A stretch of DNA of 12,817 nucleotides from a virus: UHGV virus genome UHGV-0147886; one strand, 5' to 3'. Position 1 is the stretch's first letter. Each line of letters starts with the position of its first letter. Shown one piece after another: positions 1-10,413 of the stretch. The notes below the pieces were generated by a model. That model did not search any database. It was not told the DNA's origin and saw nothing but the letters and a program-made list of their open reading frames with translations. The translations under genes and the position numbers were made by a program.

Positions 1-40
1 CCGTAGTTTCATAGTCGAGTTGCAGATCTGCAACTCGCCA
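1..40. repeat. 40-bp direct repeat, copy A; contains a 22-bp perfect palindrome CGAGTTGCAGATCTGCAACTCG (16-37)
   Basis: Positions 1-40 are identical to 435-474 (40/40), with 3 of the next 4 bases also matching. The palindrome is centred on AGATCT and includes GATC. Confidence 0.9.
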
Positions 41-150
41 TCAGTCAGGGAAATTTTGTAATTTCACGGGGGTTAAAATTCGAAGAGGCGGGCACTCCAA
101 GAGATAAGAGACGGTAGGGATTTTGCTACCCCTCCTGAATGCAATTTTTC

Positions 151-323
151 GTATATATATACAAAACAGTGCGGGTTATGCGGGTTAGCGGGTTATCTTC
201 GCGTGCTAAGTATTTTTTATTATTTAATATCAATGCGTTGAAAAATGACATGTTCAAATGTTAGCCAAATCGTAACCCGCAAGTCATTCAAAATAACCCG
301 CAACCTCTCTCAAATAACCCGCA
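151..323. repeat. Iteron cluster 1 (putative origin-like or cis replication region)
   Basis: Alternating GTATATATATAC tract at 151-162. Three tandem direct GCGGGTTA(T/G) units at 171-196. AT-rich spacer 197-272. Three inverted copies (A)TAACCCGCA at 273-281, 293-302 and 314-323 with 21-bp phasing. Same motif and layout as the cluster at 7846-7970. Confidence 0.6.
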
Positions 324-434
324 AACACATCAGGAAAGTGGGGCCAGTGATGCCACCGATCCCCTTTATTTGGGGATCGCGAGTAAGCCCCAAAATCTGG
401 GTGTTGCTCTTACTACCCAAACTACGGGTAGTTT

Positions 435-474
435 CCGTAGTTTCATAGTCGAGTTGCAGATCTGCAACTCGCCA
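435..474. repeat. 40-bp direct repeat, copy B; 22-bp perfect palindrome at 450-471
   Basis: Identical to 1-40. Lies 45 bp downstream (minus-strand sense) of the stop of the last head-module ORF and next to a 7-bp-stem hairpin at 484-501. Confidence 0.9.
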
Positions 475-518
475 CCAGTTGCTAAGTGCATTTTTGCACT
501 TTCGGTAATATCAACCAG

Positions 519-809
519 TTACCGCCGTAAGTGCTCCGGCTTCCTCCACTGGTAAGTATTTTTCGCGCTCTCCCTCCGTTGTTGAGAACGGCGACGGTAT
601 GCCAGCAACTCAAGAACTCTGGTTCGTATGTTGCGCATATCCACGCCGTTAAGCTCAATACCGTCACGGCGCATTACCTCAGCCACCACACGCGCGTAAT
701 TTTCGGCTATCACGCTGTCCGGCTGTGTAGCCTGTTCGTCAGGCTGACGACTGATTCCGGTAATGCGGCGAATTATTTTTAGTAGATCAGTTTCAGTCAT
801 TCTCGTCAT
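519..809 (-). CDS. Hypothetical 96-aa protein, translationally coupled to terL
   Basis: ATG at 809-807 overlaps the terL stop (ATGA overlap at 806-809). Last ORF of the head/packaging operon. No recognisable motif. Confidence 0.6.
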   Translation of the reverse strand: MTRMTETDLLKIIRRITGISRQPDEQATQPDSVIAENYARVVAEVMRRDGIELNGVDMRNIRTRVLELLAYRRRSQQRRESAKNTYQWRKPEHLRR

Positions 810-2455
810 ACCCCATCAAATGCCGCAAGTCGCTCTTTCTGGCTGTCGCTCATATCAAATGCAAATTCCTCATGCTCAGCCTGGAATGTGCCAAACGCCA
901 TCAGCGCCGCAACGCTCGGGTCTATCTTATTGGATGATTTTTTCTTGTTCGGCTTGATATTGGCGTTCGCGTCACTCTGCATCACAACATTACTCATTGA
1001 CCAGGCCAGCACCGGATCACCACGATGAACAATCACCTTCCGGTTAACAAAAACTTCGAACGATTTCGCCGCCGGACTAAAACGAAGGTACGTTTGCGGG
1101 AACGGCTCCACCTCAAATCCCGCTCCCTGTAGCTGCGTCCTCAGGTGCGTGGCGTTCCATGTATCGAAACCCACCAGCCTGATATTGAAATTCTCTGCAT
1201 CCGCCATGATGTCATCACGGATACGGTCATAATCAATGCAGTCACCCGGTGTTGTGCGTATCCAGCCCGCCTTTACCCACTGGCGATAGATGGCGCGGTT
1301 TTTATTGGCGGGGTTCTGTAGCTGAAATTCCGGTAGATAGTGACGTGAAACCAGCATAATCTTTTTACCGACCGGGAAGGCATAGCACACGCTGGAAATA
1401 TCGCTGGTTGATGATAAGTCCAGCCCCGCATAGCACTCCTGCCCGTATAAATCCGCCTCAGCGAACGTTCCGGCGCACTCCGCCCATGCACCGTTACCCA
1501 TCCACGGCGTAGCCCCCTGACACCAGATATTGAATCGCTTGGTGAGCATTTCCACCCACTGCGACGGAATACCCCGCGCTTTCTGGATGGTTGAGGCCAG
1601 TTTTTCACGATCGATATTGGGATTCGCCTTTATCCACATCGCCGGATCGTCAACCTCGCTTTCATCATCCAGCTCGTAAATCAGTACGAACATGGATTCG
1701 TTCACCTCTTCACCATCCAGTATCTGGCAGCAATAGTCGTAGTGTTGTTTACAGGCTGAAACAACGTTGCTCCCCGATGTGGTGATGGCAAATAACAGCC
1801 CCTCCGGACGCGCCCCCATCCCCAGTTCAAGTGCGGAATAAACCCCGTTGTCTGGGTGCAGGTGATATTCATCCACAATGGCAAGACTCGGGTTTGTCCC
1901 CTCAATGGTTGCCGCTTTTGCTGCCAGTGGCTTTAACAGGCTGTTGGTTTTCGGGTGTATCACCTTGTGCGCCTGAATATTTACCCGCTTTCGTAACGGT
2001 CGGGATAAAAGGCACATCTGACGCGCATCATCAAACACGATCCGCGCCTGATCACGACTCACGGCGGCGGTGTAAATATCCTGCTGCCCGTTTTCCATAA
2101 CCAGAAACCAGTTAGCCAGGATAGCGGCGACCGTGGATTTGGCATTTTTTCGCGGTACTTCAATGAATGCGCTGGTGTATTTGCGCCGTCCGGTGGCCTT
2201 AACCTTAAATCCCAGGATGCAGGCAAAGGCGAACTGCTGCCACGGCTCAAGTTCAATGGGGCTACCGCGCATTGCGCCTTTTACGTGCGGGCACACCCGG
2301 GAAAAGGCAATAAACCGCTCCACGACCTCCGGATCGAACGTGTAAAGGGAGTTTTCAAGGTCAGAAAAATACCGTTTAACAGCCTGTTTCAGTCGTTTAC
2401 AGGCCGTAATTTTGCCGTTTTTTACGCCTTCTGCGTACTCATGCCAGGCGGTCAA
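806..2455 (-). CDS. terL: Phage terminase large subunit (TerL)
   Basis: 549-aa ORF with Walker A-like VPRKNAKST and Walker B-like LAIVDEYH in the N-terminal half and a C-terminal nuclease-like region. Directly downstream of terS with 17-nt overlap. First codon at 2455 is TTG, preceded by AGAGGA; no in-frame ATG nearby, so the exact start is uncertain. Confidence 0.9.
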   Translation of the reverse strand: MTAWHEYAEGVKNGKITACKRLKQAVKRYFSDLENSLYTFDPEVVERFIAFSRVCPHVKGAMRGSPIELEPWQQFAFACILGFKVKATGRRKYTSAFIEVPRKNAKSTVAAILANWFLVMENGQQDIYTAAVSRDQARIVFDDARQMCLLSRPLRKRVNIQAHKVIHPKTNSLLKPLAAKAATIEGTNPSLAIVDEYHLHPDNGVYSALELGMGARPEGLLFAITTSGSNVVSACKQHYDYCCQILDGEEVNESMFVLIYELDDESEVDDPAMWIKANPNIDREKLASTIQKARGIPSQWVEMLTKRFNIWCQGATPWMGNGAWAECAGTFAEADLYGQECYAGLDLSSTSDISSVCYAFPVGKKIMLVSRHYLPEFQLQNPANKNRAIYRQWVKAGWIRTTPGDCIDYDRIRDDIMADAENFNIRLVGFDTWNATHLRTQLQGAGFEVEPFPQTYLRFSPAAKSFEVFVNRKVIVHRGDPVLAWSMSNVVMQSDANANIKPNKKKSSNKIDPSVAALMAFGTFQAEHEEFAFDMSDSQKERLAAFDGV

Positions 2456-2795
2456 GTTCGTCCTCTTCCTCTGTTTCCGGTGGATTTCTGCGACGGCTTA
2501 CCGGGTCAAAACCCAGCAAAGAAGCCATTTTGATCATTATTCTTTCTGCGTCAGCCTTTGCGCTCAGTGCGGGGTTTCTGCTCTCGCTGCCCTGACTGTT
2601 AACAATGCTGAACCCGCGCGTCGCAAGGTCTTCGACGGCTTTGCGGTATATAGAGTAGTTAACGCAATACAGTTCCAGATTGCTCCAGTCGGCGGGGGTA
2701 AGGTCTTCCCGCCCGGAAAGCTGGCGCGATTTTTCCTTCCACTGCCTGACCGCGATTTCATCCAGGTAAGCGGGGGCTTTTGGTGGTCTTGCCAT
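2439..2795 (-). CDS. terS: Phage terminase small subunit, P27-family-like
   Basis: 119 aa from ATG 2795-2793 (MARPPKAPAYLDE...). Size and sequence pattern match P27-family TerS and it sits immediately 5' of terL. The longer ORF to 2936 is read-through of the G-rich intergenic region and is rejected. Confidence 0.8.
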   Translation of the reverse strand: MARPPKAPAYLDEIAVRQWKEKSRQLSGREDLTPADWSNLELYCVNYSIYRKAVEDLATRGFSIVNSQGSESRNPALSAKADAERIMIKMASLLGFDPVSRRRNPPETEEEDELDRLA

Positions 2796-2811
2796 GTTCT
2801 TTTTTCGCCCA

Positions 2812-2840
2812 ATTATTTTCAAAAAAATTACCGTGCACAA
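2812..2840 (-). promoter_or_regulatory. Candidate sigma70-like promoter for terS-terL
   Basis: Minus strand reads TTGTGC (2840-2835), a 17-nt spacer, then AATAAT (2817-2812), about 20 nt upstream of the terS ATG. Hexamers read by eye, not scored. Confidence 0.35.
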
Positions 2841-2846
2841 AAATTT

Positions 2847-2906
2847 GAGGGGGCGGTCGGTGTCCGGCAGGGACGGTTTCGTCCTGAAAACCACCCCCAC
2901 CCCCTC
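2847..2906. other. Nested G/C-tract inverted repeat in the HNH-terS gap: candidate cos/packaging site or intrinsic terminator
   Basis: GAGGGGG (2847-2853) and CCCCCTC (2900-2906) are reverse complements and bracket an inner hairpin (2868-2886, loop GTTT). On the minus strand the structure is followed by AAATTTTT and further T runs. Confidence 0.35.
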
Positions 2907-3083
2907 TGACGGCCTCACCAGCGATTGCGAAAACATTCCATGACCTCGCGGTCACGGTCGGTTAATCGCTTCGCTGTGGTGCGTTTTGTGCGCCCTGTCC
3001 TGTTGGCTTTGTGCTCTGTCTCCTGTGTCTTCCATGTGTCACGCTGCCTTATCAGTCCACGTATCAGCCTGGTTTGCTCCTGT

Positions 3084-3524
3084 TCAGTCATCATCGCCAT
3101 ACATCCAGTCGTTACGGTGTGCCGCCCGTTCTTCCTGCTCGCGATACATGCCCGCTTTACGGTTTGTTTTCGTGGCTGGATCTTCCCGTGTCGTCTTACG
3201 GTTGTGGCACGTCTGGCACAATGCCTGGTGATTCCACTCAGGCCAGAAGAGAACATCACCGCCGCCATTGATGGGAATGATGTGATCCACCACAAGAGCT
3301 GGCGTATAAATCCCCTTAGCCAGACAACGCACGCATAACGGGTTTTTGCTCAGGTACAGGGCGCGGTATTTGTCCCACTGTCGGGAATACCCGCGCGCGC
3401 GGCGGTGTCCCCGTCTGGCATCCTCTGCACGCCATGCAGCCCGCCTGTGCTCTTCACACTTGCCGGACTTCACGCGCTTATTACAGCCAGGCTCAGTGCA
3501 TCGCCTTAATGGTTGCCACGGCAT
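3084..3524 (-). CDS. HNH endonuclease (phage packaging-associated)
   Basis: 146 aa. N-terminal Cys cluster CTEPGCNKRVKSGKCEEH and HNH core ...VVDHIIPINGGGD...WNHQALCQTCHNRK. Start ATG shares one base with the connector stop (TGATG). Sits next to terS, as is typical for HK97-like cos-type packaging modules. Confidence 0.85.
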   Translation of the reverse strand: MPWQPLRRCTEPGCNKRVKSGKCEEHRRAAWRAEDARRGHRRARGYSRQWDKYRALYLSKNPLCVRCLAKGIYTPALVVDHIIPINGGGDVLFWPEWNHQALCQTCHNRKTTREDPATKTNRKAGMYREQEERAAHRNDWMYGDDD

Positions 3525-3826
3525 CAGTACACCCCTACGTCACGATAAACTGACCAGAGCGCAGAAATAGCCATAGGCAGTTCCGAGTGCTCCACTGGTG
3601 AAACCGCTTCCCGGTTCTCGTACAGGAAAGCGATGTACATCAGGCAACCAACACGCATTGCCGGGGTAAATTCCAGCCCGTCTTCAAAACGTTTCCCGAT
3701 ATGCTTCTGGCAGGCTTCCAGCGCCGCATCGGTATACATTTTCAGAAGTTCGCCTTCACCGGATAAATCATCATCAAGTCGAAGATGTGCCCTGACTTCA
3801 TCAGGTGTAATTCTGGCTTCACTCAT
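3524..3826 (-). CDS. gp6-like head-tail connector/adaptor protein
   Basis: 100 aa from ATG 3826-3824 with RBS AGGGAG 5 nt upstream. N-terminus ...ITPDEVRAHLRLDDDLSGEGELL... matches the characteristic start of gp6-like head-tail connector proteins. Overlaps the portal stop by 8 nt. Confidence 0.7.
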   Translation of the reverse strand: MSEARITPDEVRAHLRLDDDLSGEGELLKMYTDAALEACQKHIGKRFEDGLEFTPAMRVGCLMYIAFLYENREAVSPVEHSELPMAISALWSVYRDVGVY

Positions 3827-5033
3827 CTTTTCTCCCTTTAATTTCCACAGTCTGTTTCCATGCCTGGCTGAACTCATCACCACCTTCACGCGGCGGCATA
3901 CCCTCACGCTCACGGGCTTCGTTCGGATTCATGATCCCGTTCTTAATCCCTTTCTCATACGTGGCATAACGTTCGGTGGGTGTGGCGCGTAATAAATCGG
4001 CTGAATCAAACTCAACCAGATAACGGGTACCAGGTACGGGAGAAGCCACCAGCAAAGCGGCCTTGATTTGCTGTTCGAAGTTCGCCAGCCACGGGCGCAT
4101 TGTCATGGTCAGAAACGCGCGGCTTGCCTCGCTGAAATTGCTGTAGGTGCTGTTGCTGTATTCCTGCAGAAAAATAGGCGATACGTTGAACATGCGGGCG
4201 ATGTCTTCAATGGAGAAGCGACGGGAGGCCAGCCATTCCGCATCCTGGTTACTCATTCCCAGTTGCCTGTAATCCATGCCCCCTTCAAGGATTGGCGTTT
4301 TTCCGGCATTTTTCGCCCCCTTGTAGCGTTCCAGAGCATCCAATGCCTGTTTACCTTTCACGCCGTCCAGCCATTCGCCTGACGTGATAATCCCTGCCGC
4401 CATCATGCCATCTTTCATAATGCTGGCTCCGTGACGCTGTTGAGCAAGGCCAAGCCCCAGCGCCTCACGGCAAATCGTGACGGGGGAACGCCCCAGAAAG
4501 CCATCATCCGAGGCATAGCGGAGATGCAAAACTTCTTCCTGTAAATACGTGCGCACCGTTCCTGTACAGGGTTCGGTGATGGTATAGCGGTATTTGTGTG
4601 CGCCTGTGCGTTCCGGTACAACACACCCCGGCGCATAAGGATGAAGTGATTTTGGCTGCCCGTCCTGCCCCCACTCAATAACCGCATAGGCGTTACCGTT
4701 CAGCAGGCAGTGACGCATCATTGTGCGTTTAAACTGGTAAGGTGTCTGGCACGAATTAGGCTGCTCATTCAGCAGAATATCTACCGGGTGACTGTCCAGC
4801 CATTCCCGCGCCTCCCTGCCCTTGTCATTACGTACCAGATACAGATAACACGGCATCGTGGCCACCGCCTCAGCGATGACAGAAACCGCATTCATCACTG
4901 CAGGCAATGATTCAGCCGTCCCGGCAGAAACATATTCTCCGGATCCGGTATTCGGTACGCCGGACAGCGCCAGAAAATCATCAATGGACAGGTTACGCTG
5001 CTCGCTTTTTTTACGACTAAAAGGCCACCACAT
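3819..5033 (-). CDS. Phage portal protein, HK97 family-like
   Basis: About 404 aa from ATG 5033-5031, which lies 1 nt after the protease stop (TGATATG). Size and sequence pattern, including a conserved C-terminal region (...FSIEDIARMFNVSPIFL...NPNEAREREGMPP...), fit HK97-type portals. The upstream extension to 5123 starts at TTG with no usable RBS. Confidence 0.85.
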   Translation of the reverse strand: MWWPFSRKKSEQRNLSIDDFLALSGVPNTGSGEYVSAGTAESLPAVMNAVSVIAEAVATMPCYLYLVRNDKGREAREWLDSHPVDILLNEQPNSCQTPYQFKRTMMRHCLLNGNAYAVIEWGQDGQPKSLHPYAPGCVVPERTGAHKYRYTITEPCTGTVRTYLQEEVLHLRYASDDGFLGRSPVTICREALGLGLAQQRHGASIMKDGMMAAGIITSGEWLDGVKGKQALDALERYKGAKNAGKTPILEGGMDYRQLGMSNQDAEWLASRRFSIEDIARMFNVSPIFLQEYSNSTYSNFSEASRAFLTMTMRPWLANFEQQIKAALLVASPVPGTRYLVEFDSADLLRATPTERYATYEKGIKNGIMNPNEAREREGMPPREGGDEFSQAWKQTVEIKGRKDE

Positions 5034-5034
5034 A

Positions 5035-5595
5035 TCACAACCCCGCCAGCTCAGACCAGCGATGACGATTATTTCCTGTCGGACGTAATTCAGGGTGCTG
5101 TGCAAACAACGAACGGTGGGCAATCTCCACGCCAGATTCTGGATAAGCAGGCATCGACGTTATTGTGATTTCACGGAGTTCAGCGGCGGTTACGGTACGC
5201 AGATACGGTTTTTGCGCGATACTCCACTCCTCGCATAATGCGCGAAAACCAAAGCTCATTCCTGTAATGTCGCCACGCTCCACCAGCGTAAGCACATCTT
5301 TTCCAAGCTGGGTATCCGGCGGTGTCAGTTCAAAACGTAACCCGGTGTTATCCTCAGTCAGTACCAGAGTGCCGGATTTGGTGCGCCCCAGCAGTTGGGT
5401 ATAGTCATGCTCATACAGGCAGCGCACATCATTACCCGTCGCCAGATAGTCAGCAAAAGCCCCCGGCGTGAACTGTTCGCGGAATTCGTCCCAGATAATT
5501 TCTGAAAGGCTGTTCCAGCGAACGGCATACCCCACCAGCTTTTTATTGCTGGCGGTCAGTTCAGATGTGCGGATTTCAAAATCGGTGTTTTTCAT
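5035..5595 (-). CDS. HK97-family prohead protease
   Basis: 186 aa with the prohead-protease pattern (...GYAVRWN...FTPGAF...CLYEHD...LGRT...GDITGMSFGF). ATG 5595-5593 with GGAG 7 nt upstream. Confidence 0.85.
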   Translation of the reverse strand: MKNTDFEIRTSELTASNKKLVGYAVRWNSLSEIIWDEFREQFTPGAFADYLATGNDVRCLYEHDYTQLLGRTKSGTLVLTEDNTGLRFELTPPDTQLGKDVLTLVERGDITGMSFGFRALCEEWSIAQKPYLRTVTAAELREITITSMPAYPESGVEIAHRSLFAQHPELRPTGNNRHRWSELAGL

Positions 5596-5606
5596 CGGTG
5601 TACTCC

Positions 5607-5637
5607 ATAAAGCTGAAAAAGGAGGCCGCAGCCTCCT
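5607..5637 (-). terminator. Intrinsic terminator-like hairpin between major capsid and protease genes
   Basis: On the minus strand, AGGAGGC-TGCG-GCCTCCT (7-bp GC-rich stem, 5620-5637) is followed directly by TTTTTCAGCTTT. Confidence 0.55.
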
Positions 5638-5649
5638 CCTTACTCATGA

Positions 5650-6819
5650 CTAGCCAGCTTTCATTTCCAGAATTTTGATGGCGTTTGAATCCACCACACC
5701 ACCGCCCAGATATTTATCCGTGTGGACCTTGTAGAATCCGGGTTCAGTAATGTTGTCCGGTCGGGTGCGAATCCCTGTTACATGATCAACGATGAAATAA
5801 CCACGACTGAAATCGCCAACCGCCAGCGGTGCTTTTCCTGCGCCGATGTCCGGCATGGACTCCAGGCAGTAAACAGGACGACCAAGCAACATATCCGGCG
5901 CACCGTCTTTAAGGCTGTCGCGCCAGATATAATCGCCGTTCTCATTTTTCAGCTTCTGTAGTGTCCCTGCCGTACCCGAGTTCATCACCCAGACGGCATT
6001 TTTGCGGTATTTCGCTTTCAGCTTGTAGAGAATGTCGATCAGTTCGTCCGCTGTAATGGCGGTTCCACTTGCCGCTACCATTTTTTCAATGGTGCCAAAA
6101 GCGCGGGTTTTGTCACTGGTCGCCGCACGGGTGTAAGCCATGAAGCCTTTCGGCTTGCCGTTACCGTCGCCATTAACAAAATCATCCTCTTCGGTGCTGG
6201 CGAACGTGTCGGCAATTTCGGAGGATAACCAGCCCAGAATATCCACCTCTGAAAAATCAAGGATTTCCTGCGTGGTTTTCGGGTAGGCGTAGATCGGATT
6301 CAGCTTGATGGTTACGCGTTCAATTTTCGGGGTGTTGGTTTCACTGCGTGCGCTGCCTTCTGTGCCTCGTCCTACAGTTGCGCCGCCAGTGGAAACCAGT
6401 TTCTGAAACTCATTTGATTTTGCAGTCTTCACGGTCGCGATCACGCGCATAACACTGTCATCCTGTAGCTGGCGCATGACTTCGCGATCGAGCTCAGGAA
6501 TTACGGTATATCCGCCATCCCTGCCGCTGTCAGTGCTGGTGGACAGTGATCGCACATCTCCGGTTACGATGTAGTTACGCAATTCATCAGATGATAATTT
6601 CTGGATGCCCGTTCCTGGCTTGCTGCGTTCTTCATCAGCCACAGACTCGAGGCGGGAAATTTCTGTGTCGAGGGAGTCGGCTTTTGCACGCAGTTCATCA
6701 AACTGTTTGCCCTCGTCATCGTTCAGGCTGCGGTTTTCACTGTCGGCTTTTTCCAGCAGGGATCGCATCTGGTTTTTCAGGGCGGTTTTTTGCTGGCGGA
6801 GTTCGATTAATTTCTTCAT
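5650..6819 (-). CDS. Major capsid protein, HK97 fold, with N-terminal scaffold/delta-like coiled-coil region
   Basis: 389 aa. The first ~100 aa are charged and coiled-coil-like (MKKLIELRQQKTALKNQMRSLLEKADSENRSL...), followed by an MCP-like body (...NGDGNGKPKGF...). First gene of the head operon, after a long untranslated leader. Confidence 0.9.
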   Translation of the reverse strand: MKKLIELRQQKTALKNQMRSLLEKADSENRSLNDDEGKQFDELRAKADSLDTEISRLESVADEERSKPGTGIQKLSSDELRNYIVTGDVRSLSTSTDSGRDGGYTVIPELDREVMRQLQDDSVMRVIATVKTAKSNEFQKLVSTGGATVGRGTEGSARSETNTPKIERVTIKLNPIYAYPKTTQEILDFSEVDILGWLSSEIADTFASTEEDDFVNGDGNGKPKGFMAYTRAATSDKTRAFGTIEKMVAASGTAITADELIDILYKLKAKYRKNAVWVMNSGTAGTLQKLKNENGDYIWRDSLKDGAPDMLLGRPVYCLESMPDIGAGKAPLAVGDFSRGYFIVDHVTGIRTRPDNITEPGFYKVHTDKYLGGGVVDSNAIKILEMKAG

Positions 6820-7052
6820 GAAGGTTTTCTCGTATTGGTTAAGATTCAGGACGTGAAACCAACACGGAGGGAGCGCCGCCCGACACTCTCGGCATCTCGC
6901 AGATCAACCCGGCATCGCGCAGGGGGTCAGGCGGCATTGTGGCGGCTCACGTCTGAGTGCCACACGCCAACATATACATAAAAATCAGTATGTAAATATC
7001 AGCCAGAATCACTGAACAGCCAGAAACAACCACGAACAAATAATTTACAAAA

Positions 7053-7782: not shown

Positions 7783-7845
7783 GCTGTCTGTTCTCCGGTT
7801 TTAACGTTGATAGTTACGCTTGTTTACACCCTTACGGTGAAATTC

Positions 7846-7970
7846 TGCGGGTTATAATCGCACTTTTGCGGGTTATAACTGCCGTTTTGCGGGTTACGTG
7901 CGGGTTATTGATTTCCTTTTTATTCATACAGTTAATTCACTTATACACAGGATAACCCGCATAACCCGCA
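7846..7970. repeat. Iteron cluster 2 (putative origin-like region), immediately 3' of the replication protein gene
   Basis: Four direct TGCGGGTTA(T/C) units at 7846-7855, 7867-7876, 7888-7897 and 7899-7908 (21-, 21-, 11-bp phasing). AT-rich spacer 7909-7951. Two inverted ATAACCCGCA units at 7952-7961 and 7961-7970. Confidence 0.65.
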
Positions 7971-7993
7971 ACTTTTCACCTCACACAGGGGGG

Positions 7994-10117
7994 TTAATCG
8001 TCTGCCTCAGGCTGGAACATCATCACGTAAAAAACATGCTGCTTACCCCCAATTTTGCCGAGCGCCTTTTTCTTGTAACGGCGATCGTTACCCGCTTCCA
8101 GCATTCCGGCAGCACTCAACGCGCGGGCAAAGTGAGACGGATTAAATCCCTGTGCTATCTCACCCTCAAACACATGAGGAAACGTGTAAAAACGGAACTC
8201 ATCATCTTCATTTCTGATACTCCCCTTTCTGTATCCGGCAAGGTCTTTAATCGGTAAATCACGCTCATCACTGTTTGGGTAAGGAAGGTATCGACTGAAC
8301 CCGAACGACGACAAAAACGCCTCAGCCTGTTCAACCATCTGTTTAAATTCCCTGTTACCCGTGCCGAACTCCTTCACCCAGGCATTAAAGTTATGCTGTA
8401 TTGCGTCCCGGCATTCCTGCGCGGCCCAGCCAGTTACATGACCGGAAAGCACAAGCGCAGCCTCCAGTATGGCGAAACGTTCCCCCACGCGGTGGACCTG
8501 CTCGCCGTAGCTCTCCGGTATCAGGTTGTGCCACCGTTCGCGGCATTCCCTTACCGTGTCCTTTGCCTCCTGCTGGTGGTCTGCCAGCCATTTAACCCAC
8601 TCACGACCCGCCGCCCCGTGATTTGCAGTCCAGGCATCCTTTAACGCGTCTGCGTGCGCCTTTCCGGTGCTGTATTCGTGAAATTGCGTGGCTTTCTCCA
8701 TCGGTACGTTAAGCAGACGGACAAGCTGGCCTGCTTTGACTTTTACCCCCTCACTTTTGAGGAATGTCTCAACATCCATTTCTCCGGTGCTGATTGCCAC
8801 CGTGCGCCAGTGTTTGATCTCCCTGTTGCCGCCGTCCTTCGCCCCCTGTAATTTCCCCGAACCGTTAAACAGCGTATAGGCTGACGTGGACACTTCCCGC
8901 GCGTTTCCGGCCTGGCCTATTTCATCCAGGGGTAACAGCCCGTCGTTGTGTGCTTCGGCCTCGTTGGCGATACCTAACGCCGTTCCGTACCAGGTCAGCC
9001 GTTGCGCGTCCGGCTCTCCCCATAAACTTGAAGCGATGTTCTGCGTGGTGGTTTTCCCTGCCGATGACTGTTCGAAAAGATGTACCCCGAAGCCGTCAGC
9101 ACCAACAAGGCCAATCAAAGGTGCTGCCAGTGACGTGGCAACACCCAGCATCATGGACGGATTGCCACCAGCCAGCCGCGCCACGCTGTCGCGCCAGCCC
9201 TCCGCCGTACCCGCAACCGAATAGCCATTAACAGCGGCACTTTTTCCGGTAAACAGGATCGGTTTTTCAGAATCACCAATGATTGAACCGTCCGGCATGA
9301 TGTACGCGCCAAAATGCCAGCCCGTTGTTGTGCTTAACTGCCATTCCTCATGGCTTCCGCTTAACTGCATCCAGTCAGCCAGGATAGCCCTGTATTTGCC
9401 ATTTGTTGTCACATTCAGCCCGTGATCTTTAAGCAACCGCCAGCCGTCACGGTCGCCAATGCCACCACACGGGATCGCCATTGTGATGACTTCATGGTTT
9501 GCTAATTTTTTCCAGCGCATCACGCGGTAATGCTCTTTACCGATCGTCCCCGTTCCCAGTAGTTCAAGCGGAGAACATAACCACGTCTCAGGCCGGATAA
9601 TTTCGCCTGACTGCTTATCCACTTTGGGCGTTACCCAGAAAACACCATCGACGCGACTTTCAACGCGGGGCTTTAATTCATCATCCTGATAGCATGGCTC
9701 TTTTTTCTTTACAGGCAGTTCAACTACCTTTTTCTTTTCCGCCTGCTCTGCCCGTTCACGTTCCAGATATTCGCGCCAGTTCTCCCGTTTCTGGCTGTGC
9801 ATTCCTTCAGGATAATAATCAGCATCCCTGACACCTGCCGCTGCCAGTTTCTGCCCGATGGTATTAACAAGCCCCGGACGCAATAACCCCGCCTGATAGA
9901 GACGCACGCGATAGCGTCCGTCCGGTACGATTTGCAGGTTGTCCAGTTCGGCAAGTTGTTGCTCTCCAAGCCAGACAGGAGGCACGTTATCGCCAGCCAG
10001 TCGCCCGTCCTGTTCCTGCCACTGCTTCGCATGTGCCCACGCATCACTACCCGCAAAAATGATGACTTCCGTCATTTTGTCACGCGGCTGGTGTTTTAAA
10101 TTTGGCGCTTTTTTCAT
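7994..10117 (-). CDS. Replication initiator, P-loop NTPase of the primase-helicase type (SF3/DUF927-like)
   Basis: About 707 aa from ATG 10117-10115 (RBS GGAGAG; ATGA overlap with the upstream ORF; alternative GTG at 10132). Central Walker A ...EQSSAGKTTT... and Walker B ...LLPLDEIG.... Followed directly by the iteron cluster. A primase function for the N-terminal domain is inferred from context only. Confidence 0.75.
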   Translation of the reverse strand: MKKAPNLKHQPRDKMTEVIIFAGSDAWAHAKQWQEQDGRLAGDNVPPVWLGEQQLAELDNLQIVPDGRYRVRLYQAGLLRPGLVNTIGQKLAAAGVRDADYYPEGMHSQKRENWREYLERERAEQAEKKKVVELPVKKKEPCYQDDELKPRVESRVDGVFWVTPKVDKQSGEIIRPETWLCSPLELLGTGTIGKEHYRVMRWKKLANHEVITMAIPCGGIGDRDGWRLLKDHGLNVTTNGKYRAILADWMQLSGSHEEWQLSTTTGWHFGAYIMPDGSIIGDSEKPILFTGKSAAVNGYSVAGTAEGWRDSVARLAGGNPSMMLGVATSLAAPLIGLVGADGFGVHLFEQSSAGKTTTQNIASSLWGEPDAQRLTWYGTALGIANEAEAHNDGLLPLDEIGQAGNAREVSTSAYTLFNGSGKLQGAKDGGNREIKHWRTVAISTGEMDVETFLKSEGVKVKAGQLVRLLNVPMEKATQFHEYSTGKAHADALKDAWTANHGAAGREWVKWLADHQQEAKDTVRECRERWHNLIPESYGEQVHRVGERFAILEAALVLSGHVTGWAAQECRDAIQHNFNAWVKEFGTGNREFKQMVEQAEAFLSSFGFSRYLPYPNSDERDLPIKDLAGYRKGSIRNEDDEFRFYTFPHVFEGEIAQGFNPSHFARALSAAGMLEAGNDRRYKKKALGKIGGKQHVFYVMMFQPEADD

Positions 10118-10413
10118 TTCTGCTCTCTCCACGCGGCAATCATGTTTTTCAGTTCCTGTAGTTTTTTATCCACATCCACACGTGACACATGGTTATTTCT
10201 GGAAAGCGGGATTTCCCGCCGGAATCTGCAAATAAAGATCTCCACGTTCAGCGAACTATGAAATGAATAGCCATCACGAATAAAATAAACACGGTCAAAC
10301 ATCAGTTCTTTTACCGTTACTCTGTTACCGTTCTTATCCAGATAAATAGCGCCGGGGATAATTTTGGGGTGTGCATAACCGCTGGCAGTCAAGCCAGATA
10401 AATATGTTCTCAT
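10114..10413 (-). CDS. Hypothetical 99-aa protein
   Basis: ATG 10413-10411. Stop overlaps the replication protein start (ATGA). Part of a tightly coupled operon. No recognisable motif. Confidence 0.55.
   Translation of the reverse strand: MRTYLSGLTASGYAHPKIIPGAIYLDKNGNRVTVKELMFDRVYFIRDGYSFHSSLNVEIFICRFRREIPLSRNNHVSRVDVDKKLQELKNMIAAWREQK

Follow-up and report, generated by a model that had tools for sequence, protein, structure and literature searches.

The stretch of DNA analysed here, called the window throughout, comprises 12,817 nucleotides of UHGV virus genome UHGV-0147886 and is a capsid-forming phage-inducible chromosomal island (cf-PICI). It carries, close to its left edge, a perfect 40-bp direct repeat whose two copies bracket a set of iterons. 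All genes of the window lie on the minus strand. In order of transcription they specify a DUF927 primase-helicase (rep; 7994-10132, minus strand), presumed to be the iteron-binding initiator, followed by SSB, an HK97-type capsid protein, protease, portal, connector, HNH, TerS, TerL and a 93/96-aa open reading frame (ORF), which we call ORF93 (519-809, minus strand; phrog_1561). An HK97-type capsid, protease, portal and connector together with HNH, TerS and TerL, and no tail genes, is the gene content of a cf-PICI. This assignment uses the ORFs, a Terminase_4 Pfam match, PHROG matches and the RefSeq annotation of islands that are 96-98% identical. The gene order is that of the cf-PICI description in the available text of bioRxiv 10.1101/2022.09.08.507074. 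This text and that of bioRxiv 10.1101/2025.02.11.637232, as available, concern the same island family and state that packaging proceeds through cohesive ends; neither maps cos (the cohesive-end packaging site) or the replication origin (ori) in those portions. Integration and overall size can be seen only in relatives, where the integrase gene lies beside gcd and a 23-bp repeat lies at the start of hpt, approximately 15.5 kb apart; the window ends short of the integrase.

Positions 1-40 and 435-474 are identical (40/40), with a start-to-start distance of 434 nt and a gap of 394 nt, and the match extends to 45 nt with a single mismatch (1-45 against 435-479). The expected number of such 40-mer repeats in 12.8 kb is, by our own arithmetic, approximately 1e-16, which agrees with the statement in an earlier reading of the letters alone (the sequence-only reading) that the repeat cannot be chance. 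Each copy includes one perfect 22-bp palindrome, CGAGTTGCAGATCTGCAACTCG (16-37 and 450-471), of which the window contains no further copies. The 40-mer is the distal end of a hairpin-rich, non-coding element of about 125 nt, which we call U and which in relatives measures 121-126 nt. The complete copy in the window, U(B), occupies 353-479 (plus strand) and includes hairpins h1 (357-379), h2 (381-409) and h3 (419-443) in addition to the palindrome (450-471). Its right end, CCACCAGT, matches the complement of Chi at 7 of 8 positions. U(A), the copy proximal to the attachment site (att), is cut by the window edge: its last 45 nt are present (1-45, plus strand; 44/45 identical to 435-479) and its first 81 nt or so fall outside, the full 121-nt copy extending to the left in relatives. 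In most variants of U the palindrome is symmetric over just 20 bp, with GATC, AATC or AATT at its centre. A 9-nt tandem repeat inside U (window 426-443, GGTAGTTTCCGTAGTTTC; alignment columns 81-91) occurs in one or two copies among islands (a single copy in L050, L111 and the L004 type, for example), and this copy number alters which of two alternative hairpins can form.

The arrangement is not confined to the window. In L001 (E. coli DAX4), L006 (E. coli KSC9) and L053 (IMG/VR), U is 94-97% identical and the spacing is also 434 nt. The layout with two U copies was found in 12 complete E. coli genomes and four IMG/VR contigs, and in one more that is cut by the contig end. The perfect identity over 40 positions is peculiar to the window, the copies of L001 and L006 differing at 3 of them.

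What the two copies enclose resembles a replication origin. Next to U(A) lies X2 (46-140, plus strand), a diverged copy of an att-proximal segment X (74% over 43 nt to X1 of L001); on its minus strand, a hairpin at approximately 115-132 weakly resembles a terminator (L001 15212-15195 maps to window 132-115). Module 2 follows (141-322). It begins at its outer edge with an AT-rich tract of alternating TA (141-170; 23% GC), identical to one in module 2 of L008, and continues with three closely spaced iterons GCGGGTTA at 171, 180 and 188 (171-195, plus strand), an AT-rich spacer (196-272; 30% GC), which is a candidate melting region, and three inverted iterons TAACCCGC at 273, 294 and 315, spaced by 21 nt (273-322, minus strand). 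A junction segment, J (323-352, plus strand), ends at a motif, CCACCGA, that recurs at the start of U; J is also present in L104-L109, which have no U and diverge directly after CCACCGA. PICI origins have been defined as an AT-rich region with a set of iterons on either side, placed directly 3' of pri-rep (PMC6092414). The bracketed block has this layout, the spacer between its iteron sets included, but it lies 7.6 kb from rep, which ends at 7994. A canonical PICI origin, module 1 (7836-7980, minus strand), is found immediately 3' of rep and consists of two plus four GCGGGTTA iterons round an AT-rich stretch. The iteron GCGGGTTA is thus common to 171-322 and 7847-7969. Compared with phage records, window positions 1-600 gave only a 78-nt match, located in module 2, to a 2-kb fragment.

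The two modules occur together in other islands with a DUF927 rep. In Nu1-type PICIs of this kind (L008, L009, L058 and L079) both are placed in tandem directly after rep, and there is a single U. The window shares 96.6% identity with L008 in module 1 and, over 165 nt, 86% in module 2. Four cf-PICIs (the window, L001, L006 and L053) have only module 1 next to rep, with module 2 enclosed by the two U copies; L095, cut by the contig start, has the same split layout. L105, likewise a DUF927 island with split modules, has its module 2 at a terminus that lacks U. Where the primase is of P4 type, as in L005 from E. coli D8, the iterons are TGTTCACC, a GCGGGTTA cluster is missing and U is single. Both modules are retained in every examined DUF927 island whose relevant regions lie in the contig. 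To judge from sequence, the retention of module 2 in spite of flanking direct repeats, which would favour deletion, argues that it is a functional part of the replicon, and by analogy with crr of satellite phage P4 we infer that it may serve as a second cis site for Rep binding.

The L005 island deserves separate mention. This cf-PICI is otherwise approximately 98% identical in its packaging genes, yet a P4-family primase replaces DUF927, and behind the primase gene the type I iteron of P4, TGTTCACC, occurs nine times (L005 11240-11460). Replication modules have therefore been swapped wholesale between island lineages.

U itself is widespread. Of 5426 complete E. coli genomes searched with window positions 354-479 as the query, 704 contained it, at 801 places in all and mostly at one place each (range 1-6). 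U lies about 40 nt downstream of ORF93. Each of the 102 copies that could be placed is on this side of ORF93 and in one relative orientation; the commonest spacing between the last aligned residue of ORF93 and the U core is 94-97 nt. The pair of ORF93 and U is common to at least three PICI families whose packaging genes are unrelated, including those with an HK97-type TerL, with DUF1441, and with a lambda Nu1-type TerS and gpE/gpD-type capsid genes. In the 175 nt around U, five hairpins follow one another; the folding energy of this stretch is -70.7 kcal/mol on the plus strand (z -7.45 relative to shuffled sequence) and -68.3 kcal/mol on the minus strand (z -6.36). One of the outer hairpins is the variable hpV (484-501, AAGTGCATTTTTGCACTT), between U and ORF93; among 44 distinct variants, compensatory changes back both hpV and h1. 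Just past U(A) in relatives, an 11-bp GC-rich hairpin with a T-rich tail on the gene strand scores as an intrinsic terminator, so that U probably forms, as predicted, the 3' untranslated trailer of the operon. Three other identities were considered for U and rejected: it shows no coding potential (variable sites have no 3-nt periodicity); a sigma-54 promoter (TGG...TTGCA at the palindrome) was discarded by eye since the GG-to-GC spacing is off by one; and a tRNA-like 3' end at CTCGCCACCA has no T-arm, CTCGCCACCA being absent from copy A. ARAGORN found no tRNA.

Three terminal states can be distinguished, given here in gene orientation. The commonest (S1) is ORF, hpV, U, terminator, X, att. The second (S2; L104-L109) is ORF, a different spacer, J, module 2, X, att, without U. 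The third (S3), that of the window, is ORF, hpV, U(B), J, module 2, X2, U(A), terminator, X1, att. In S3 the two U copies are nearly identical, whereas X1 and X2 are diverged homologues. J and U are joined at CCACCGA, a motif that both J and the start of U contain. The joint between U and X2 is at CCACCAG(C), the complement of Chi, which occurs where U ends and again where X starts. Because the joints lie at short shared motifs, we infer that islands with different terminal cassettes recombined and so produced the duplication. U(B) of the window is itself a mosaic: its left half corresponds to the allele of copy B in L001, and its right half and flank to the L005/L002 allele. This explains the perfect identity of its 40-mer with copy A. 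A contig 98.4% identical to window 354-6963 has a single U, which indicates recent exchange at U. U is a frequent breakpoint between islands. It also serves as an insertion site for accessory genes: in the tRNA-Ile island of E. coli EC12 (L017 9432-12970), 3.5 kb of cargo (KilA-N, a PerC pseudogene and others) lies inside the ORF-proximal U, between the first 7 nt and the last 59 nt of U(B).

We consider it rather probable that the window contains a duplicated, dispensable hairpin trailer placed by recombination on both sides of a second origin block resembling P4 crr. According to this explanation, U, which is located between ORF93 and, in relatives, the intrinsic terminator and attachment site, would serve several E. 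coli PICI families as the trailer of their late operon, that for capsid and packaging. In the DUF927 cf-PICI lineage the terminal region would have been duplicated to give the order seen in S3, and module 2, 7.6 kb from module 1, would act as a second cis site for Rep. This duplication could stem from exchange between islands whose terminal cassettes differed, perhaps following tandem integration. The direct U copies would then be a by-product of recombination history and not functional borders of an origin, and would be expected to recombine to the single-U state. To judge from the natural variants, U appears dispensable both for packaging and for the DUF927 replicon. As candidate roles, U could be a structured RNA or a platform to which proteins bind, but most likely it would be a co-transcribed hairpin array at the 3' end of the operon, which protects or insulates the transcript end in the manner of REP and BIME sequences (repetitive extragenic palindromes and bacterial interspersed mosaic elements).

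A number of points weigh against this explanation. The predicted parent, with a single U plus module 2, is absent from the islands examined. The use of module 2 in replication is deduced from its sequence, and both the transcription of U and termination beyond it are predictions. The U core (h2, h3 and the palindrome) is nearly invariant among the 44 variants, although part of this invariance is imposed by the search pattern itself. Where the core hairpins do vary, some sites give a wobble pair on one strand and other sites give one on the opposite strand, and there are A.C mismatches on one or other strand; an RNA structure is therefore no more than possible, and could be on either strand. 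A protein-binding site would also be consistent with the high conservation in primary sequence that the palindrome and the ACTAC/GTAGT pentamers show. For the palindrome the sequence-only reading had suggested a dimeric protein site or cruciform, and for the repeat, among other roles, a possible recombination or resolution site.

Several other explanations must be weighed against the duplicated trailer. U could give rise to a structured RNA that acts in cis, made either on the opposite strand or as the 3' end of the late-operon transcript, such as a small RNA or a regulatory element derived from the 3' untranslated region; duplication would then double its dose. The run of five hairpins and their extreme folding scores, the fixed orientation and distance from ORF93, the compensatory changes that keep the stems of h1 and hpV while loops vary, and the plus-strand G.U wobbles that replace Watson-Crick pairs at 39-61, 69-102 and 108-123 all suit this idea. 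We nevertheless regard it as rather unlikely: variable sites at 36-64 and 77-95 are tolerated on the opposite strand only, so that no single strand fits; a sigma-70-like promoter is not predicted in or beside U; and close relatives with identical packaging genes lack U. Moreover, Rfam 15 gave no match in the window at the gathering threshold and only chance-level matches (E > 3) around U in E-value mode. The U copies might instead be functional borders of an origin, providing hairpins for single-strand initiation or primosome loading, or sites for proteins such as Rep, integration host factor (IHF) or ORF93, as do ssiA and ssiB of RSF1010. Hairpin arrays do lie on both sides of the iteron/AT-rich block, an IHF-consensus match adjoins U(B), and the palindrome and inverted ACTAC/GTAGT pentamers are conserved in sequence. 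The sequence-only reading had likewise proposed a border of the origin module, and it was correct in so far as the repeats bracket an iteron/AT-rich/iteron block. However, natural variants show that U can do without module 2 and module 2 without U. Module 2 occurs without adjoining U both in tandem with module 1 (L008, L009, L058 and L079, whose single U is elsewhere) and in a terminal position (L104-L109, including the DUF927 island L105); most islands, including those with P4-type primases, have U without nearby iterons; and the copies are direct, not inverted. A functional border is therefore improbable.

The arrangement could also be the scar of two islands integrated in tandem, with U(A), the terminator and X1 as the remnant tail of an island since lost. 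The divergence of X1 from X2 between near-identical U copies, and the U(A)-X2 joint at a Chi-like motif found at both the U end and the X start, can be read in this way, but such a scar requires a parent with a single U and module 2, of which none was found, and the whole structure lies inside the att repeats and moves with islands at different integration sites. We think this origin distinctly doubtful; it concerns history only and is compatible with a duplicated trailer. The same applies to the earlier suggestion of a junction with a remnant element, which may be true of how the duplication arose and not of what is present now, an internal, mobilised part of islands at the hpt and tRNA-Ile sites. 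A final, tentative possibility goes further. DUF927 satellites would use a split, two-part origin whose second half lies many kb from rep, as with P4 ori and crr; U would be an undescribed, satellite-specific structured element (RNA or single-stranded DNA) with a role of its own, for example in transcript processing, priming or protection from RecBCD; and U-module 2-U would be a recombination-bounded origin cassette that moves at Chi-associated joints. We consider this combination rather unlikely.

Two further roles receive very little credence from the comparisons. A direct repeat near one end of a mobile island, with copy A abutting the window edge, could suggest a duplicated att core, the boundary of the element, or an assembly or circular-junction artefact, all of which had been raised by the sequence-only reading. 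Comparison of L001 with the empty gcd-hpt site of K-12 showed, however, that the island is bounded by a distinct 23-bp direct repeat, TTRCTTCTACARTATGTTTCATA, which overlaps the hpt start codon and is present once at the empty site. U(A) begins approximately 400 bp inside this hpt end, so that window position 1 is some 485 bp inside. U is confined to the hpt-proximal end: no copy of the 40-mer exists beside the integrase or at the empty K-12 site. In addition, U is shared by islands with differing integrases and integration sites (hpt, thiM, tRNA-Ile and clpS), and an artefact would hardly recur in 12 finished E. coli genomes. These proposals can be dismissed with near certainty. We also rejected as att core a perfect 22-bp direct repeat, AGTGATACACCGAGTGATATAC, since the K-12 comparison places the boundary repeat at the hpt start. 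It is located approximately 65-150 bp inside each island end (L001 14660-14681 and 29903-29924) and may be an arm-type site for the integrase.

That U or its palindrome is a cos or terminase-recognition site, duplicated as are the two experimentally mapped cos sites of EcCICFT073 (PMC6092414, PMC6739421), is only slightly easier to entertain. U comes just after the terminase genes, the symmetric 22-bp site looks like a nicking site, and PICIs with two cos sites are known from the same work. A cos site should be found in every element using the same terminase, but six cf-PICI contigs (L104-L109) have no U even though their TerS is 100%, TerL 96.6-98.9% and HNH 97-99% identical to those of the window. 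The intergenic region between HNH and TerS, on the other hand, is 96-100% conserved in all islands with this terminase, with or without U. Nu1-type PICIs that carry U have a lambda-type cosN (GGGCGGCGACCT) upstream of the Nu1 gene, and several of their contigs begin exactly at cosN, approximately 1.3 kb from U. EcCICFT073, which has cos1 and cos2 either side of rppA and an ORF93 homologue, has no U. A search of the window for a lambda-like cosN returned only a chance-level match. U is thus probably not cos. By analogy with HK97, a likelier candidate would be the gap between HNH and TerS (window approximately 2812-2935). This non-coding gap, between HNH with its neighbouring small ORF and TerS, contains a G-rich inverted repeat (GAGGGGGCGG...CCACCCCCACCCCCTC).

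ORF93, the last gene before U, comes after terminase genes in several PICI families, and the gene it follows is always of terminase type (TerL, Nu1-like TerS, DUF1441 or RppA). It is found in PICIs of Escherichia, Shigella, Klebsiella, Enterobacter and Pluralibacter (examples are window 519-809 on the minus strand, L020 2474-2665, L022 2405-2635 and L103 3374-3655), and its product ends with the motif YQW[KR]KPE..RR. Searches of Pfam, NCBIfam and the Protein Data Bank gave no relatives, the sole family match being PHROG 1561, to which no function is assigned. A tblastn search of phage records returned one weak Klebsiella phage match, and a scan of the contigs for distant homologues gave only five loci, with U at none. 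ORF93 is probably a packaging-associated protein. The identification of DUF1441 as the solved Rpp protein was considered and rejected.

The region just downstream of ORF93 has features of its own. The sequence TATCAACCAGTTA (509-521, plus strand), which overlaps the ORF93 stop codon, matches the IHF consensus WATCAANNNNTTR and is a putative site. It forms part of a unit, AAC..GTTGATATT..CG with a short variable hairpin, that is present one to three times per island (window 484-521, L001 15560-15900 and L103 3655-3830) and contains the IHF-consensus match. Islands without U have, just downstream of ORF93, five GTCAC/GTGAC repeats at approximately 11-nt spacing (L107 715-785; L018 approximately 3040-3085); in L107, where ORF93 is on the minus strand, the array is at lower coordinates than the gene. 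It resembles a protein-binding array and is in the place held elsewhere by U.

Chi (GCTGGTGG) is strongly over-represented. The 12.8-kb window has 11 exact sites compared with 0.39 expected from shuffled sequences (for example, 1171, 4046, 5280, 5532, 7746, 9165 and 11680 on the minus strand, and 6535, 7720, 8572 and 10817 on the plus strand), and L001 has 14 in 15.3 kb. In most variants a Chi site is exactly at the ORF-proximal end of U, and another is at the start of X1. Such abundance may guard rolling-circle or linear island DNA against RecBCD.

The region can be compared with several known systems. As in the origins of PICIs and Staphylococcus aureus pathogenicity islands (Fillol-Salom et al. 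2018, PMC6092414), block 171-322 has two iteron sets round an AT-rich region, and its iteron, GCGGGTTA, is that found beside rep. It differs in being 7.6 kb from rep at the far island end, in being a second copy of the layout, and in having flanking direct repeats of about 125 nt, which are outside the described origin. P4 has two iteron-bearing cis regions several kb apart, of which crr has direct repeats of about 120 bp; ori and crr are reportedly both bound by the alpha primase-helicase. The window likewise has a second, distant and putative cis region with the same iterons (GCGGGTTA) as its origin, and related cf-PICIs carry a P4-type primase and P4-type TGTTCACC iterons. However, the P4 iterons are inside the ~120-bp repeats, whereas those of the window lie between the U copies, which contain none, and the window initiator is DUF927 and not P4 alpha. 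The REP, BIME and RIP (repetitive IHF-binding palindromic) elements of E. coli, some of which include an IHF site, are hairpin arrays in intergenic regions that are transcribed at the 3' side of genes; they are believed to protect mRNA 3' ends and to serve as recombination substrates. U is similarly a hairpin array at a predicted transcribed 3' end, but is unrelated in sequence, confined to satellite islands, much longer and far more conserved. Lambdoid phages have short conserved non-coding linkers between modules, which are sites of mosaic exchange. U also marks breakpoints between otherwise different islands, but it is longer and highly structured, and one boundary is at Chi. RSF1010 oriV shares with the window hairpin-forming sites beside an iteron/AT-rich block, but ssiA and ssiB are essential and inverted on opposite strands, whereas the U copies are direct repeats, and many occurrences of this iteron module lack them.

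The available text of published descriptions of cf-PICIs and other Gram-negative PICIs leaves the cf-PICI cos unmapped and places the origin only beside rep. The structural novelty of the present arrangement is modest within a known kind of element, and its recognition will keep the repeat from being annotated as an att site or island boundary. What is new is that the DUF927 replicon consistently retains two iteron modules, which in capsid-forming islands are separated by the capsid and packaging block, and that a conserved hairpin trailer marks the joints at which terminal cassettes are swapped. Testable predictions for PICI replication and packaging follow from these features.

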